From: an uncultured Bacteroidales bacterium
GTDB lineage: Bacteria; Bacteroidota; Bacteroidia; Bacteroidales; UBA7960
NCBI GenBank assembly: GCA_964348755.1
Contig: CAYGDW010000004.1
Location: 18,766 to 82,765 of the forward strand
Direction: 5' to 3'
Length of the DNA stretch: 64,000 nt
Every line of letters begins with the position of its first letter. Within the stretch, counting starts at the first letter, position 1. Under the pieces are notes generated by a model. That model had not been told where the DNA came from. It saw nothing but the letters and a program-made list of their open reading frames with translations, and did no database searches. The translations under genes were made by a program, and so were the position numbers. Shown here one piece after another: positions 4,170-61,527 of the stretch.

Positions 4170-5284
4170 CGCTTTACCTCCTCAATAATTTCTTCCGGGC
4201 TGATCATTCTGCCAAGACTGCCAACAACGGAAATGTTTGCCGGAATATGATGTCCGAAAAAAAGGCTCCTCAACTGATGGTTTATGTTTTCTTCGGCAAT
4301 CACAACTTTTTCATGTTTCCTGAAAATTTCCAGGTAAACATCTGGGGTGGGGATTAGTGTTTTTGGAATGAGCAAGGAGACCTTCTCATGTTGCTTCCTA
4401 AGCAACTCTACGGCATCAATGGCTGCCGAAGAAGTAATGCCATAAGCCACAACAAGCTTGTTTGCACCTTTTTGTTCATCGAGTGTGTAATAGTTGTGAG
4501 CTTTCATGCGCTGCAATATTTTTTCTTCCAACCTGCGGGTGTTCTCCATCGATTCATTGTTGGAATGCTGCAAAATGCCGGATTGGTCGTGGGTCGAAGC
4601 ATTGATTCGTACCTGGTGTTTGTTGCTCGTAACTGGCAGAAAATCCGGGACTAAATCAGTAGGTTTATATGACTTGTATTCGCAGTCCAACTCGTATTGT
4701 TTAAGTTTTGTTGGTCGAATTTCAGCCAATTTATCAAGATTAAAACTTTTGAATGTCATAACCTCTTCTTTTGATGTAAGCAGCACCACAGGAGTTCTAA
4801 GAGCAACTGCCACTTCGGCTGCTTTGGCGGCCAGGGTCCAGCAATCGATAAAATCGGCTGTGGCCAGCACTGGTATGGGGTGTCCGCCGGAAATCATACC
4901 TTTTAGCAGCAGCAGGTCGCCTTGTGCCCCGCATGTGGCAGTACCGGTTGCAGGCCCCAGCCGCTGCACCAGTATAATCACCATGGGCAGTTCCATCATA
5001 AAGGCCATGTTTATAGATTCAATCATAAGTGCAAAGCCCGGAAACGATGTGGCAGTAACCGGCAGTTTTCCGGTTGCGGCCAATCCGCTCATCCATTGCA
5101 GAGTGGTAATTTCATCTGGGGCCGGAAGCATCAGATCCATCCTTTGGCTGCCATATTGGTATAGCAGGTTGGCAGGGGTAATTGGATATCCGATAAAGGC
5201 ATCGGCCCCTGCCCGGGCCAGCGCCTCAATCATTAGCCGGGACCCATCTATCAATGCACGGTTTCCCTTGGTTTTATCTTGCAT
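4166..5284 (-). CDS. 2-oxoacid:ferredoxin oxidoreductase alpha subunit
   Basis: 372 aa. IDGSRLMIEALARAGADAFIGYPITPAN...QRLGPATGTAT is typical of the OFOR alpha (pyrimidine-binding) domain. The gene is adjacent to, and translationally coupled with, the beta/gamma gene. Confidence 0.75.
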   Translation of the reverse strand: MQDKTKGNRALIDGSRLMIEALARAGADAFIGYPITPANLLYQYGSQRMDLMLPAPDEITTLQWMSGLAATGKLPVTATSFPGFALMIESINMAFMMELPMVIILVQRLGPATGTATCGAQGDLLLLKGMISGGHPIPVLATADFIDCWTLAAKAAEVAVALRTPVVLLTSKEEVMTFKSFNLDKLAEIRPTKLKQYELDCEYKSYKPTDLVPDFLPVTSNKHQVRINASTHDQSGILQHSNNESMENTRRLEEKILQRMKAHNYYTLDEQKGANKLVVAYGITSSAAIDAVELLRKQHEKVSLLIPKTLIPTPDVYLEIFRKHEKVVIAEENINHQLRSLFFGHHIPANISVVGSLGRMISPEEIIEEVKR

Positions 5285-11086: not shown

Positions 11087-11117
11087 AGTGGTTGTTTTTG
11101 AATGTGTACAAAATTAA

Positions 11118-12107
11118 CTAAAAACTTGGACAGTTTAGTATGCGATAACGTTGCTTTTTTGCATTGCAATGCAAATTCAGTAAAACACTTATTTCGTGGG
11201 TGCCATTAAAAATTCCTGAAAACCCCGACAGTGAATGATCGTAGCTGTAGGCTACCCGGTAATTACCCGGGTTGAGGCCTATCATAAAAATAAGGGTTTC
11301 TGGCAGATTTAAATCCTGCCTGAGCCACACTCCGGCAACAAATTGCGAAATGCCAGCATAAATTCCGTAATTTAAGCGGTGGTGGGCACCCTGGTTCTGA
11401 TATATTACGTTTGGAGAAAGAAAAAATTGTTCTGTTGGTGAAGTTGTTGAGCTTTTTTGAATTATTGGAATATGCATTCCGGCATGGGCTGTTATTTTTA
11501 GCGGAAGCGGCTGGTTGTGGCCAAAGAAGCTTTGATTGGGGCGGGTAAGGTGGTGAATGGCTGCCCCGCCATAAAAACGCTCATTAAATAGCAGGACACC
11601 AGCCCCAAAATCTGCGGCATGCCGCCAGGTTTTGTCTGGAGGGGGTTCGGTTTGTGGGTTGATTATCCCGGTGCCTGTATCGAACTGGTCGGCAAAAATC
11701 AGTCTGTCCCAGTTAAGGTCATTGCGAAGATAACCTGCCTGAACCCCAAAATTGAGATAAAAATCGCGGGTAAGCCGTAAATGCAGGCTGTAAATGGCGC
11801 TTATGTGGTTGCGCATTAAAAGGCCGCCTTGGTGGTCGCTGGTAAGCAACACCCCCAACCCGCCTCTGAGGGCATCAACAGCCCGATCGAAAGAAAAATT
11901 GTACGTTGAAAATGTGCCGAAATCGGGCCAAGGCTGGTTGCGGTAATTAAAAACGAGCCTCGGGCATTGGCCCGTGCCGGCAAATGCCGGATTTAAATAT
12001 ACCGGCGCCGAAAAAAATTGCGAAAAAATTGCGTCCTGTCCATGAGCAGGTAACGAATTTGCTGCAAGAAAAAATATGAGAATCAGGTCAATCGGGTTTT
12101 TTCTCAT
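11118..12107 (-). CDS. PorP/SprF-family type IX secretion system membrane protein
   Basis: 329 aa with a signal peptide, followed by QDAIFSQFFSAPVYLNPAFAG, the PorP/SprF family N-terminal motif. The remainder has beta-barrel-like composition. Confidence 0.8.
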   Translation of the reverse strand: MRKNPIDLILIFFLAANSLPAHGQDAIFSQFFSAPVYLNPAFAGTGQCPRLVFNYRNQPWPDFGTFSTYNFSFDRAVDALRGGLGVLLTSDHQGGLLMRNHISAIYSLHLRLTRDFYLNFGVQAGYLRNDLNWDRLIFADQFDTGTGIINPQTEPPPDKTWRHAADFGAGVLLFNERFYGGAAIHHLTRPNQSFFGHNQPLPLKITAHAGMHIPIIQKSSTTSPTEQFFLSPNVIYQNQGAHHRLNYGIYAGISQFVAGVWLRQDLNLPETLIFMIGLNPGNYRVAYSYDHSLSGFSGIFNGTHEISVLLNLHCNAKKQRYRILNCPSF

Positions 12108-12210: not shown

Positions 12211-12416
12211 CACTATTGTCCGATAAAGTAAAAAAGGGTAGAGTTTTATGCATGAGATTCCTCCCTACGTTCGGAATGACAGTCTGTTAGCTTTTTATTA
12301 AGGGGGGTAGGTGATAGCTTCGTCGCCACCTACCCCCCTTAATTGCCAAAATCATTGAAAGCCCTGTCATTACGAGCGGAGCGAGAAATCTCGTAATTTT
12401 TGTCGGCCAGTATTAA
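12211..12416 (+). mobile_element. MITE-like palindromic repeat element, copy 1 (206 bp)
   Basis: The termini CACTATTGTCCGATAAA... and ...TTTTGTCGGCCAGTATTAA form an imperfect TIR. Internal features are the GGAATGACAG and CTGTCATTACGAGCGG boxes and a central hairpin at 12302-12338. The element is flanked by the identical 8-mer TTTTTTTG at 12203-12210 and 12417-12424. Confidence 0.8.
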
Positions 12417-24238: not shown

Positions 24239-24808
24239 TTAGCGGTTTTGTACAAACTCCAGAAAAGCTTCGGTTTCTTGGTTTAATTGTTCGGGGTTGC
24301 CATTGTTGTTTATTACATAATCGGCCTGCCTTATACATTCGGCCAGATTTTGTTTGTTCGAATCATCAGAATTCATTTCGCGTTGCTCGTTGCTCAAAAA
24401 GGTGTCGAAAGATACATTGTCGGTTTCAGAATTTCTTTTCCTTATGCGTAGGTAGCGAATTTGAGGGTCGGCATCAACGGCCAGCAAAAAAAATCCGGGG
24501 AAACTTCTTAGGGAAGCAATTTCGCCGGGGGTTCTGATGCTCTCAATAATACAGTTCTGATTTAGGGTGGCGGCCTCCTTGTACAGCTGCTCAATTATGT
24601 ATGAGGGGCTGTTTTGTGCCCGAAGTTCATTGGCAAGCGCCGTAAGGGTGTCGCGGTTTACGGGCAGGCCGCGCGCATTAAGCTCGCGCGCAATAAAAGC
24701 CCGCACCGAAAAGTGAGCAAACCCTTTGTTCTGTGTAAGGTAATCGACCACAGTGCCCTTTCCTGCACCCAATGTGCCTGTTATTCCAATTATTATCTTG
24801 TCTTTCAT
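24239..24808 (-). CDS. P-loop nucleotide kinase-like protein (dephospho-CoA kinase / dNMP kinase-like)
   Basis: 189 aa. The P-loop GITGTLGAGKGTV lies at the N-terminus. Size and layout match small nucleotide kinases, but specificity is not assignable. Confidence 0.55.
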   Translation of the reverse strand: MKDKIIIGITGTLGAGKGTVVDYLTQNKGFAHFSVRAFIARELNARGLPVNRDTLTALANELRAQNSPSYIIEQLYKEAATLNQNCIIESIRTPGEIASLRSFPGFFLLAVDADPQIRYLRIRKRNSETDNVSFDTFLSNEQREMNSDDSNKQNLAECIRQADYVINNNGNPEQLNQETEAFLEFVQNR

Positions 24809-24964
24809 TAACCAAAAATACTTATTTTAACACCATTGTCCGATTGAAACGTACATGTTTGCGAATTAAACACAAACACCTTTGAACCGAAAGTCAGCGA
24901 AACTAACCGAAGTTCAGCGAAGCTAAAATAGCAAACATGGAGTTCCATCCGACCTTAATTTAAA

Positions 24965-25168
24965 AATTATTTACGGATGAAAATGACGGGATTTCTCGCT
25001 CCGCCCCAAATAACGAGGTTTTCAGCGGTTTTGGGGAAGATCGGTGGTTGGAGGCGGCCAAGCCGCCGCCAACCACCGATCAAAAAACTTACTGTCTGTC
25101 ATTCCGAATGCAGTGAAGAACCTCAACCACGTAATTCTTCCGGTATTTGATTTTGTCGGGAAATAATG
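24965..25168 (-). repeat. degenerate copy 2 of the MITE-like palindromic element
   Basis: It has the same order of parts as copy 4: AAAATGACGGGATTTCTCGCTCCGCC, then the hairpin at 25039-25081, then CTGTCATTCCGAATGCAGTGAAGAACCTC, then TTTTGTCGGGAAATAATG. The termini have diverged and I could not define a clean flanking duplication. Confidence 0.65.
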
Positions 25169-49764: not shown

Positions 49765-49971
49765 CACTATTGTCCGAAACAGTAAAATAGGATAGGATTT
49801 TATGCATGAGATTGCTTAATACGTTTGGAATGACAGTTAGTTAGCTTTTTATTAAGGGTGGGAAGGTGGCAGCGAAGCCGCCACCTTCCCCTCTCTATTG
49901 CCAAAACCAATAAAAGCCCTGTCATTTAGAGCGGAGGGAGAAGTCTGGTAATTTTTATCGGCCAGTAGAGA
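49765..49971 (+). mobile_element. MITE-like palindromic repeat element, copy 3 (207 bp)
   Basis: It is collinear with copy 1 along its full length, with a hairpin at 49860-49890. The identical 8-mer TTTAATAA flanks it at 49757-49764 and 49972-49979. Confidence 0.8.
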
Positions 49972-49980
49972 TTTAATAAT

Positions 49981-50018
49981 AAAAAAAGAGGCGACCTGGG
50001 CAGGGTCGCCTCTTTTTT
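49981..50018. terminator. bidirectional rho-independent terminator between convergent genes
   Basis: A perfect 10-bp stem AGAGGCGACC / GGTCGCCTCT encloses a 7-nt loop. AAAAAAA precedes it and TTTTTT follows it. It lies 15 nt beyond the stop of the MFS gene. Confidence 0.8.
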
Positions 50019-50032
50019 GTAAAAAGGTTGTT

Positions 50033-51715
50033 TTATTTATGGTTTGAAGGCAGTTCCAGCCCGTAACCTTGCTCTTTATCTGCTTTTTTGAGCATAAAAG
50101 CCAGGAATATGGAAATAATGCCACAGACTACAAGCATTAGAATTGGCCAGGTATAATCGTAATATGGCACTTCACCTGCAGCCTGCATAGCTTTTAGCTG
50201 GTAAGCAATTTCACCGCCCGTAAGACCCTGAGCCGAAAGGTTTGCTCTTACATCGTCGATGGTTTTTACTACAACCGGATTTACTTTGTAAAGCAAAGCA
50301 CCAATGCCCCAGAAAAATGCGCCAAGTCCCCAGTTTTGTACAGTAAACATGGTGGCATAGGCTGTTCCGAGCCGGTTTTCGGGAACAATCTTGGCTACCG
50401 ATGGCCACATGGCTGCCGGTACAAGTGAAAAAGCAACCCCCAGGCTTAGCAAACCAAAATATGCCAAAATCGGAGATTCAAAAATAGAGAGCGAAAGGTG
50501 AGCAAATATAAGAAGCAACGAACCAAGGATCATTAGCGATGCAGCTTTGCCTTTGCGGTCAACATAGCTGCCAAAAATAGGCGTGAAGATTATGGTGCCC
50601 AGCGGAATCAGAGAGGCTGTCTTTGGCCCGTTGACCAGCCAAATACCGAGCGTATCGCGAACCAGGTAAACAGCAATGGCAAAAACACCTATAATGGTAA
50701 ACAGAGCAAGCCTTTTGGCGCTCTTTTCCCTGAGGTATTTTGGAACAAGGGTTACCGAAAGTGCAAACAAGAATATTACCAGATAAACTGCGGTGCTGCC
50801 AAGAGCTTCACTGCCAAAAAGAATTACAGCTGCCCCTTCGGGAAGCACATAACTAAAGCCAAACTTATTTACCAGCAGATCGGGTGCATATTGAATAAAG
50901 GGGAATACGGCCGAGTAAAAGGCCACGCAGAGCAATGCAATAAAAATAAACGATTTGTTGGTTACCAGCTTCACCAGGTCGGAGAATTTGAATTCATCAT
51001 CGGCGGCCTGGGCCTTTTCTTTGGCATCCACTGCGTCCTGGTCAAGCCCTTGTTCCTTATAAAGTGCAGCCTTATTGGCTTTTACCTGCTTGTCAATTTT
51101 AATGTCGAAGAAAAGGTAAGTAACAAAGAATATGAGTGACAAGCCTATGAGCGAAGCGGCAAACACCGCTGCCGGCGATACCTGCACCCCTGCAATGTCG
51201 AGCGAAATAGCAATGGCAAGGGCCGAACCCAATCGACCAAAAGCCATATTGATAGCCATGGCAAGTGCCAACTCATACCCCTTAAACCATTTTACAATGG
51301 TGCGGCTTACCACCACGCAAACCACTTCAAGGCCAGAGCCAAAAAGGATACGCCCCACAATAAGACCGGTAAGAACAGTAGATTTTTCCTCGCCAAAAAA
51401 GCCCGACGATGCCAAAGCTGTAATGAGGCCACCAACTGCGGCCAAACTGCCAAATGCCAGACCGGCCAGTCGAATGCCCCATTTATCAAGAATAATGCCT
51501 CCGATAATTATCATGCCAAACACGTTGGCTATGGTGGTTAGACCTATTATTCTTCCAAACTCCTCGCTGTTTATACCCAGGTCGGTCTCCATCAGGCTGC
51601 GAAGTGGCGAAAAGAAATCCTGAAAATAATACGTGGAGAACATTAAACTGCTCACCAGTACAAGCACCAGCCAGCGGAAAGCCGGAGTCTCATTGATTAG
51701 TTTTTGTCGTTGCAT
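50033..51715 (-). CDS. MFS transporter with a long central hydrophilic loop
   Basis: 560 aa arranged as 6+6 hydrophobic segments, split by a charged loop (KQVKANKAALYKEQGLDQDAVDAKEKAQAADDE). Confidence 0.7.
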   Translation of the reverse strand: MQRQKLINETPAFRWLVLVLVSSLMFSTYYFQDFFSPLRSLMETDLGINSEEFGRIIGLTTIANVFGMIIIGGIILDKWGIRLAGLAFGSLAAVGGLITALASSGFFGEEKSTVLTGLIVGRILFGSGLEVVCVVVSRTIVKWFKGYELALAMAINMAFGRLGSALAIAISLDIAGVQVSPAAVFAASLIGLSLIFFVTYLFFDIKIDKQVKANKAALYKEQGLDQDAVDAKEKAQAADDEFKFSDLVKLVTNKSFIFIALLCVAFYSAVFPFIQYAPDLLVNKFGFSYVLPEGAAVILFGSEALGSTAVYLVIFLFALSVTLVPKYLREKSAKRLALFTIIGVFAIAVYLVRDTLGIWLVNGPKTASLIPLGTIIFTPIFGSYVDRKGKAASLMILGSLLLIFAHLSLSIFESPILAYFGLLSLGVAFSLVPAAMWPSVAKIVPENRLGTAYATMFTVQNWGLGAFFWGIGALLYKVNPVVVKTIDDVRANLSAQGLTGGEIAYQLKAMQAAGEVPYYDYTWPILMLVVCGIISIFLAFMLKKADKEQGYGLELPSNHK

Positions 51716-60818: not shown

Positions 60819-61210
60819 AATCCCCTAAAGGGTAAGATGTTTTAAATTGTCCCAACAGTCAGTTTATTTCTTTTATTTTATTGGGTTTACAGCCCAATGA
60901 AATAAATCTTTGTGAAGCGAGTCAGGTGTGGTTTTTTCGCAAATCGGGGTTAAAGATATTACCGCACAGTCAAATTTCAAAGAAAAATATGAAAGAATCT
61001 GGTTTTCAGTAAATTAAAACCATCGCAATCTGGTTCGTTTTATAATGAATAATTGTTTTGGGAAATAGTTGAAGAGTTTCCTCAATTGGGTCCGAATAAC
61101 CGGGCTTAAAATGGCTTTTTGCAAGGTTTTGAGCTGGCCAGATTGCCCGTTTGGGCTTAAACTGCCTTGCCGCACCAATTTTGCTATGTTTAATAATTTC
61201 TGTTATAGAA

Positions 61211-61415
61211 TCATCATTGTCCGATAAAAATGACGGGATTTATCGCTCCGCTCTAAATGACAGGGCTTTTATTGGTTTTGGCAATTTGGGGGGTAGGTGG
61301 CGGCTTCGCCGCCACCTACCCCCCTTAATAAAAAGCTAACTGACTGTCATTCCGAACGTATTTAGCAATCTCATGCATAAAATTCTACCCTTTTTTACTT
61401 TATCGGACAATAGTG
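61211..61415 (-). mobile_element. MITE-like palindromic repeat element, copy 4 (205 bp, inverted relative to copies 1 and 3)
   Basis: It has a perfect 13-bp TIR (ATTGTCCGATAAA at both ends) and a perfect 17-bp hairpin stem at 61288-61324. The flanking 8-mers TTATAGAA (61203-61210) and CTATAGAG (61416-61423) match at 6 of 8 positions, with an identical TATAGA core. Confidence 0.8.
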
Positions 61416-61527
61416 CTATAGAGTAGTGAAAGAAATAATTCAGGAATTATTTTTCGGAAGGTATTTGGGATTAACTGAAGTTGGCCTTTGCGATGAGACT
61501 GTTTTTTTTAATGGTTATTAGTGCCAA

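Follow-up and report, generated by a model that had tools for sequence, protein, structure and literature searches.

The Chunjie MITE of Geobacter uraniireducens is 178-235 bp long and A+T rich, with 21-bp terminal inverted repeats and 9-bp direct repeats (PMC3184786). The bcr1 repeats of the Bacillus cereus group are mobile, keep their structure through compensatory changes, and have repeatedly been lost (PMC3184786). REP elements and REPINs are GC-rich palindromes tagged by GTAG or CGTC (PMC3733652). Complementary changes are routine both in REP families (PMC3733652) and in bcr1 (PMC3184786). Template-switch mutations generate multi-base compensatory changes and loop inversions in hairpins, bacterial examples included, and bacterial rRNA hairpins provide documented cases in which only the loop is inverted (PMC8794818). 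In the spacers of chloroplast DNA, inversions of 4-50 bp bounded by hairpins are likewise pervasive (PMC12371153).

The DNA analysed here, referred to as the window, is a stretch of 64 kb from an uncultured Bacteroidales bacterium related to Prolixibacteraceae and Marinilabiliales. Type IX secretion genes are present in this organism, whose PurK shares 72-78% identity with proteins of Prolixibacteraceae, Mariniphaga, and Carboxylicivirga. Repeat finding, a pattern search, and an nhmmer profile locate exactly four copies of one repeat in the window (Table 1), a density that would correspond to about 100 or more copies in the genome. This repeat is a 202-206-nt non-autonomous, non-coding fold-back MITE with a GC hairpin at its tip, the two halves of which are termed the A-half and the B-half. 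When each copy is compared with the family profile, scores reach 185-227 bits in the forward orientation and 34-67 bits as the reverse complement, a gap large enough for the orientation calls to be safe. Copies 1 and 4 have flanks that are ~90% identical (A-half plus stem). The family adds a previously undescribed MITE, with direct evidence of mobility, from uncultured Bacteroidales.

Table 1. Positions of the MITE copies, their tip hairpins, and associated features, numbered along the window unless a contig is named.
Feature	Position	Strand	Remarks
Copy 1	12211-12415	+	222.7 bits; divergent promoter region between a PorP/SprF gene and a C25 peptidase gene
Copy 2	24965-25168	-	185.5 bits; most divergent window copy, ~70% identity to the others
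Copy 3	49765-49970	+	211.3 bits; between convergent genes, just inside the terminator at 49985-50020
Copy 4	61212-61414	-	227 bits; A-half first on the minus strand
Tip hairpin, copy 1	12297-12343		17-bp perfect outer stem; inner stem decayed through four GC-to-AT transitions; TTC loop
Tip hairpin, copy 2	25039-25081		20-nt arms, one C/T mismatch; loop CAA on the plus strand, TTG in element orientation
Tip hairpin, copy 3	49856-49893		loop GAA; one bulged T, one G.T pair, one A.C mismatch
Tip hairpin, copy 4	61288-61324		17-bp stem; loop TTC on the plus strand, GAA in element orientation
Terminal inverted repeat, copy 4	61399-61415	-	CACTATTGTCCGATAAA
Terminal inverted repeat, copy 4	61212-61228		CATCATTGTCCGATAAA
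Target-site duplication 1, copy 4	61203-61211		TTATAGAAT; 7/9 match to its partner once oriented
Target-site duplication 2, copy 4	61415-61423		CTATAGAGT
Inverted central segment	L006 3107-3277 vs. L001 2378-2470
Orthologous site, empty	L047 3713-3830
Orthologous site, filled	L012 5068-5287; L048 2289-2335

Further members of the family were sought in sequence collections. A metagenome contig collection scanned with a pattern of both flanks yielded one further copy, L012, from another species. A genome contig collection scanned with an A-half pattern gave 11 loci, three of them related and all from one Bacteroidales MAG (L001, L002, L006), and none of the 11 has the hairpin of the window. The window species is absent from both collections. 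Two pattern scans of a viral contig collection returned one chance match and nothing else, and no copies occur in 132 kb around purK in three relatives (~75% amino-acid identity). The three loci of the MAG form a distant branch with the same terminal repeats and A- and B-halves around different centres; L002 has an A-half for which no matching B-half was found.

The element resembles the published description of Chunjie in its length of ~205 nt, its ~20-nt terminal inverted repeats, its 9-bp AT-rich duplications, its intergenic and non-coding nature, and its folding into a stem-loop that spans the whole element. It differs in its host phylum and in its tip, a distinct GC-rich palindrome whose loop occurs in both orientations. 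The bcr1 repeats differ in having 5-bp duplications, and they are known to be transcribed. The short GC-rich stem, the 2-3-nt loop, and the complementary changes between members are REP-like. However, the tetranucleotide at the site of the REP tag varies (GTAG in copies 1 and 4 and L012, GAAG in copy 3, GTTG in copy 2), and the lack of a conserved GTAG or CGTC tag means that the hairpin is not a REP element. Its palindrome is also always found inside an element that has terminal inverted repeats and target duplications, features absent from REPs, and no RAYT gene was seen in the ~80 kb of genome covered. A REP/RAYT identity was therefore rejected on account of the unconserved tag and the embedding of the palindrome in a MITE.

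The terminal inverted repeats are ~20 nt long and start with CACTAYTGNCCGA. Imperfect inverted ends resembling CACTAYTGNCCGAYAAA are present on both sides of copies 1, 3, and 4, L012, L001, and L006, while the terminal inverted repeat of copy 2 is degenerate. The 9-mers flanking copy 1 (TTTTTTTTG and ATTTTTTTG) and copy 3 (GTTTAATAA and ATTTAATAA) match at 8/9 positions, and those of copy 2 at 7/9. With the ends set by the same rule in all seven elements compared, each element's own AT-rich 9-bp flanks match at 6-8 of 9 positions (49/63 overall), whereas mismatched pairs drawn from different elements match at a mean of 4.05/9 (permutation p = 0.00035). Stop codons occur in all frames of the element. 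A protein search for spurious ORFs with the concatenated six-frame translation of five copies, from which the L013 hybrid frames were left out, gave 8000 candidates, none with E <= 10, and a 44-aa translation of the element had no match among 1.84 billion representatives. Evidently, these repeats are not annotated with ORFs by gene callers. No autonomous transposon bearing the same type of ends was encountered in the sequences examined.

The element is mobile, as it is present in one genome and absent from another at an orthologous site. In L012, a 202-nt element (5077-5278) occupies the 340-nt spacer between a kinase-like gene and a beta-lactamase-family gene, where the sequence reads TAAACAAAT, the element, and then TGAAAAAAT. 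In L047, the flanking kinase is 86% identical to that of L012, and the spacer is 118 nt long with a single TAAACGAAT and no element. An empty site reconstructed from the L012 flanks and one copy of the duplication aligns collinearly to L047. In L048, an 84% relative, the element is present at the same boundary.

Each half of the element is an imperfect reverse complement of the other, which lets the whole element fold back on itself. Copy 4 forms one long stem-loop whose tip is the GC palindrome (-86.3 kcal/mol, z = -8.7). In the consensus fold of six copies, the A-half (…TTCGGAATGACAG…) pairs with the B-half (…CTGTCATT…), and nine pairs have changed on both sides, five of these within the tip hairpin. 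All copies have the hairpin at the same site, flanked by ...TTAGCTTTTT and CCAAAA..., with shifts of no more than 1-2 nt. In copy 4 it reads GGGGGGTAGGTGGCGGC-TTC-GCCGCCACCTACCCCCC, a stem with no mismatch, and the folding energy of the single-stranded DNA is -24.8 kcal/mol (z = -8.1). The G+C content of this stem is 88% (15/17 arm bases); a 60-nt window containing the hairpin has 57% G+C compared with 28-35% in the windows on both sides.

The same position is held by another hairpin in one member of the distant branch. Adjoining the B-half of L001 (2483-2525) is an unrelated GC palindrome, CAGGGGCGAACACTGGCCGC-AGA-GCGGCCAGTGTTCGCCCCTG, with a 20-bp stem free of mismatches, and the centre of this element also has ~110 extra nt. 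A different GC hairpin at the same position indicates that stable pairing is conserved and not the sequence. The recurring central feature is thus a GC-rich stem, strong and perfectly paired, that closes a 3-nt loop, and not any particular sequence. In L006, an 18-bp inverted repeat (GGTGAGGCTGTCTCAAAA / TTTTGAGACAGCCTCACC) encloses ~125 nt that are inverted relative to the homologous segment of L001. This is either a larger-scale flip of the centre or a nested element inserted both ways.

Covariation in the tip stem was examined in five distinct hairpins, those of copies 1-4 and L012. The set is limited to five by the absence of the window species from the scanned genome and metagenome collections and of copies from the relatives examined. 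Across 22 pairs, the paired cells amount to 89.8%, whereas shuffles give 78.4 +/- 2.1%; pairing falls to 35-62% when partners are slid by 1-3 columns. Both sides have changed in seven pairs, a number reached by 0/500 shuffles. Columns 11/48 appear as G-C, C-G, and A-T, and columns 15/45 as G-C, T-A, and A-T. Columns 18/42 hold T:A in copy 4 and A:T in copy 3, which is the double substitution that the sequence-only reading had pointed out, and further changes on both sides are found at columns 19/41 and 22/38. The L012 stem has no mismatch although its pairs have changed. The earlier proposal that structure is kept rather than sequence is thus supported by paired changes above chance, on five sequences, and with the unrelated GC hairpin at the same place in L001.

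That reading did not recognise the family as a fold-back MITE, and two of its details require correction. The mirrored five-base insertion proposed for copy 2 is unnecessary: in a gap-free alignment of the arms the differences are substitutions, three of them compensated, and the arms seem longer because pairing extends outward, GATC with GATC. The outer stem of copy 1 is indeed kept with no mismatches, but it measures 17 bp rather than the 12 bp first described, as ATTAA/TTAAT extends it. The inner five positions of copy 1 contain two A.C and two G.T oppositions. All six single-sided changes in copies 1 and 3 put A or T at positions that are G or C in the consensus. They comprise five mismatches at core pairs and the bulged T of copy 3 (column 14); five of the six are transitions, and the column-14 T is a G-to-T transversion or an inserted base. 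Single-sided changes toward A or T are the pattern of neutral decay in an AT-rich genome.

When all copies are read in a common flank orientation, the loops are TTC in copy 1, TTG in copy 2, GAA in copies 3 and 4, and GAT in L012. The reversal between copies that the sequence-only reading reported therefore persists after orientation by profile. The loops of all four window copies are reproduced in independent ENA and Logan assemblies of the same species: that of copy 1 in L039, where the tip has the same sequence, those of copies 2 and 3 in L022-L024 and L017, respectively, where the entire tip hairpin is identical, and that of copy 4 in L013/L027. The loops of copies 1 and 4 are exact reverse complements at 3/3 positions, so that the loop of copy 1 is flipped relative to copies 3 and 4. 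The change has the footprint of a template switch, with CTTCG in copy 1 against CGAAG in copies 3 and 4 while the other flanks are ~90% identical. By our own estimate, the chance of obtaining a reverse-complement loop through three independent substitutions is ~4e-5. Whatever the tree of the five copies, it requires at least two flips.

An A.C mismatch at columns 26/34, in the same arm, is common to copies 1 and 3 despite their opposite loops. This weakly suggests that only the loop with 1-2 bp on either side was inverted and not the whole palindrome (p ~0.1 for coincidence). In other samples the orthologous copies have identical loops with no flip, an observation of little weight in either direction given how nearly identical these samples are in sequence overall. 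In copies 3 and 4, the loop together with its closing pairs reads GCGAAGC on the A-to-B strand (49870-49880 and 61301-61311). GCGNAGC is described as an "extraordinarily stable" DNA mini-hairpin motif (PMC13037366). Since copy 1 has its GAA on the opposite strand, the flip alters which DNA strand can form the most stable tip.

These observations are probably best explained by a stable tip that is kept in transposing lineages, with template switching copying changes between arms and inverting the loop, and with inserted copies left to decay. Under this explanation, only lineages with a stable tip hairpin would go on producing new copies. A template switch within the palindrome during replication could copy a change in one arm onto the other and so restore a perfect stem, and a switch of the same type, equivalent to a tiny inversion bounded by an inverted repeat, would reverse-complement the 3-nt loop while leaving the flanks intact. 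Once inserted, copies would be neutral and would decay by GC-to-AT transitions, as in copies 1 and 3. Template switching as a cause, also raised by the sequence-only reading, is plausible by analogy, given that compensatory changes and loop inversions are documented for it elsewhere (PMC8794818). In E. coli, template switching at quasi-palindromes is elevated in strains deficient in exonucleases (xonA, exoX). On its own it leaves an 88% GC stem in an AT-rich element unexplained, hence some selection for stability is needed, and we infer that this acts on the source copies. A requirement for a stable tip in transposing copies would explain the GC richness and perfect stems across species as well as the unrelated hairpin sequences.

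The flipped loop resembles published template-switch hairpins (PMC8794818; PMC5453318) in the exact reverse-complement loop between paired arms and in the stem changes on both sides. The hairpin-bounded small inversions of chloroplast DNA (Kelchner & Wendel 1996, cited in PMC12371153) involve the same loop reversal. Those cases come from rRNA genes, microRNA genes, or plastid spacers, whereas here the hairpin is the tip of a bacterial MITE and paralogous copies are compared. A loop flip combined with a covarying stem is known mutational behaviour and not a new system; the family provides a natural example from a bacterial repeat in which the loop flips while the stem co-varies.

An alternative is an RNA element selected by the host, either a terminator or a stabiliser of 3' ends like some REP, ERIC, and Correia elements, in which selection on the transcript would keep the pairing and leave the loop free to vary in sequence. 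In its favour, the hairpin has a very high stability, three of the four window copies start 75-108 nt 3' of the stop codon of a co-directional gene when read from A to B, and reviews state that some MITEs affect mRNA stability (PMC3184786). The small B-half hairpin of copy 1, which is followed by TTTTT and called terminator-like by a terminator scan, is also in keeping with such a role. However, copy 1 lies in a divergent promoter region, and the L012 copy is read from B to A by its upstream gene. The tip shares a strong GC-rich intergenic hairpin with Rho-independent terminators but differs by the T-tract missing after its stem. Past the stem, copy 4 continues with AAATTG in the A-to-B direction and with TTAATAAAAAG on the other strand, and copy 1 with TTAATTG; with no T-run on either strand, the scan gives no call for the GC hairpin. 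It is thus not a canonical terminator, and this role, one of those suggested from the sequence alone, was rejected for want of a T-tract. The companion suggestion of an RNA stability element is not indicated either. The stem has 3 G.U and 3 A.C cells on the A-to-B strand, and because each G.U becomes an A.C on the opposite strand, this symmetry favours neither strand, carries no RNA signal, and renders the G.U test uninformative. In Rfam, the element has no match at the gathering score and no relevant match at E <= 10 (its best score is 23.9 bits against a gathering score of 155), and the only match at threshold in the window is a tRNA. Copies 1 and 3 are moreover decaying, and free drift of the loop would not yield an exact reverse complement. 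A host-selected RNA element is accordingly unlikely. The case serves as a warning that covariation and seemingly "compensatory" pairs in palindromic DNA repeats can come from arm-to-arm copying and selection on source copies, so that a significant result of the R-scape type in such repeats is no evidence of a functional RNA.

The remaining alternatives concern how the loop comes to be reversed. If the flip were coupled to transposition, a single-stranded or hairpin-primed intermediate would give each new copy a random loop orientation, as in the flip/flop of parvoviruses. Such a route would suit a quasi-palindromic element with a very stable tip that matches the GCGNAGC motif in copies 3 and 4 (PMC13037366), and it is compatible with the roughly equal orientations (2 vs. 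3) and with orthologous copies being the same between samples. Against it, the numbers are tiny, no transposase appears among the Pfam matches listed for genes on the loci that overlap the window (36.9-49.6 kb lies outside those loci), and the common A.C mismatch suggests that the lineages of copies 1 and 3 acquired it before the flip. The 9-bp duplications and CA...TG-type ends also presumably reflect a DDE transposase of the ordinary cut-and-paste or copy-paste kind that works on double-stranded ends, which counts against a flip during transposition. This coupling is improbable, and slightly more so the specific version in which the ultra-stable GC tip (GCGAAGC) nucleates a hairpin or single-stranded intermediate that randomises loop orientation at each copying. 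If true, the randomised loop would be a bacterial counterpart of parvoviral and poxviral terminal-hairpin flip/flop, and the transposition or replication route would be one not described for MITEs that have terminal inverted repeats and duplicate 9 bp of target. That the palindrome is a separate small mobile unit, inserted independently into the MITE backbone in either orientation, would fit the modular centre of the family, with another hairpin in L001, an inverted segment in L006, and a lone A-half in L002. Yet it sits at the same position in every copy to within 1-2 nt, has no flanking duplication, never occurs outside the element in the ~527 kb examined, and carries an arm-specific mismatch common to copies 1 and 3. 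A nested insertion was rejected given the fixed position, the lack of a duplication, and the absence of lone palindromes, and is very improbable. Finally, a palindromic repeat could yield false loop orientations in assembly, and contigs do often break in or next to the element, with L013 joining the halves of two copies. The same loop is nevertheless found at each locus in the independent ENA and Logan assemblies, and a 37-nt palindrome is far below both the read length and k = 141, making an artefact scarcely credible.

Metagenome contigs of the window species repeatedly break within the element. One ENA contig, L013, contains at 11088-11296 (= L027 1981-2184) the SSF-transporter flank, A-half, and hairpin of copy 4 joined to a different B-half. 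Past this second B-half, the contig continues with PGM, TRCF, FBPase, CinA, and the first part of the window. Compared with the window, L013 thus has ~68 kb in the opposite orientation, bounded by copy 4 and an unseen inverted copy. Another contig from this sample begins exactly at the point where the B-halves diverge (loci: 61212-61414; L017 1-81). The junction is either a real inversion polymorphism, produced when inverted MITE copies recombined, or an assembly chimera. The element thus breaks metagenome assemblies and may mediate a ~68-kb inversion, both of them relevant to how good assembled genomes of this lineage are.

Several minor features lie within or beside the copies. A sub-motif recurs in both halves of all copies, as GTCATTnnGAGCGGAGCGAGAAATC in the B-half and as a relative of it in the A-half, and could form a small hairpin of its own; in copy 1 it is located at 12252-12280 and 12366-12395. 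Directly outside copy 3, a bidirectional canonical terminator, AAAAAAAGAGGCGACCTGGGCAGGGTCGCCTCTTTTTT, lies between the convergent genes at 49985-50020 and illustrates the form that terminators take in this genome. An ORF of 90 aa on the minus strand (49852-50124) spans this terminator and copy 3 and is most likely spurious. At 24831-24847 on the plus strand, ~120 nt outside the degenerate B-end of copy 2, is a lone sequence resembling a terminal inverted repeat, CACCATTGTCCGATTGA (repeat family D10). A 46-aa ORF is called across the intervening stretch, 24808-24948, in one metagenome annotation (L022 10955-11095). Together, this lone sequence and the ORF stretch may be the remnant of a second or interrupted element.
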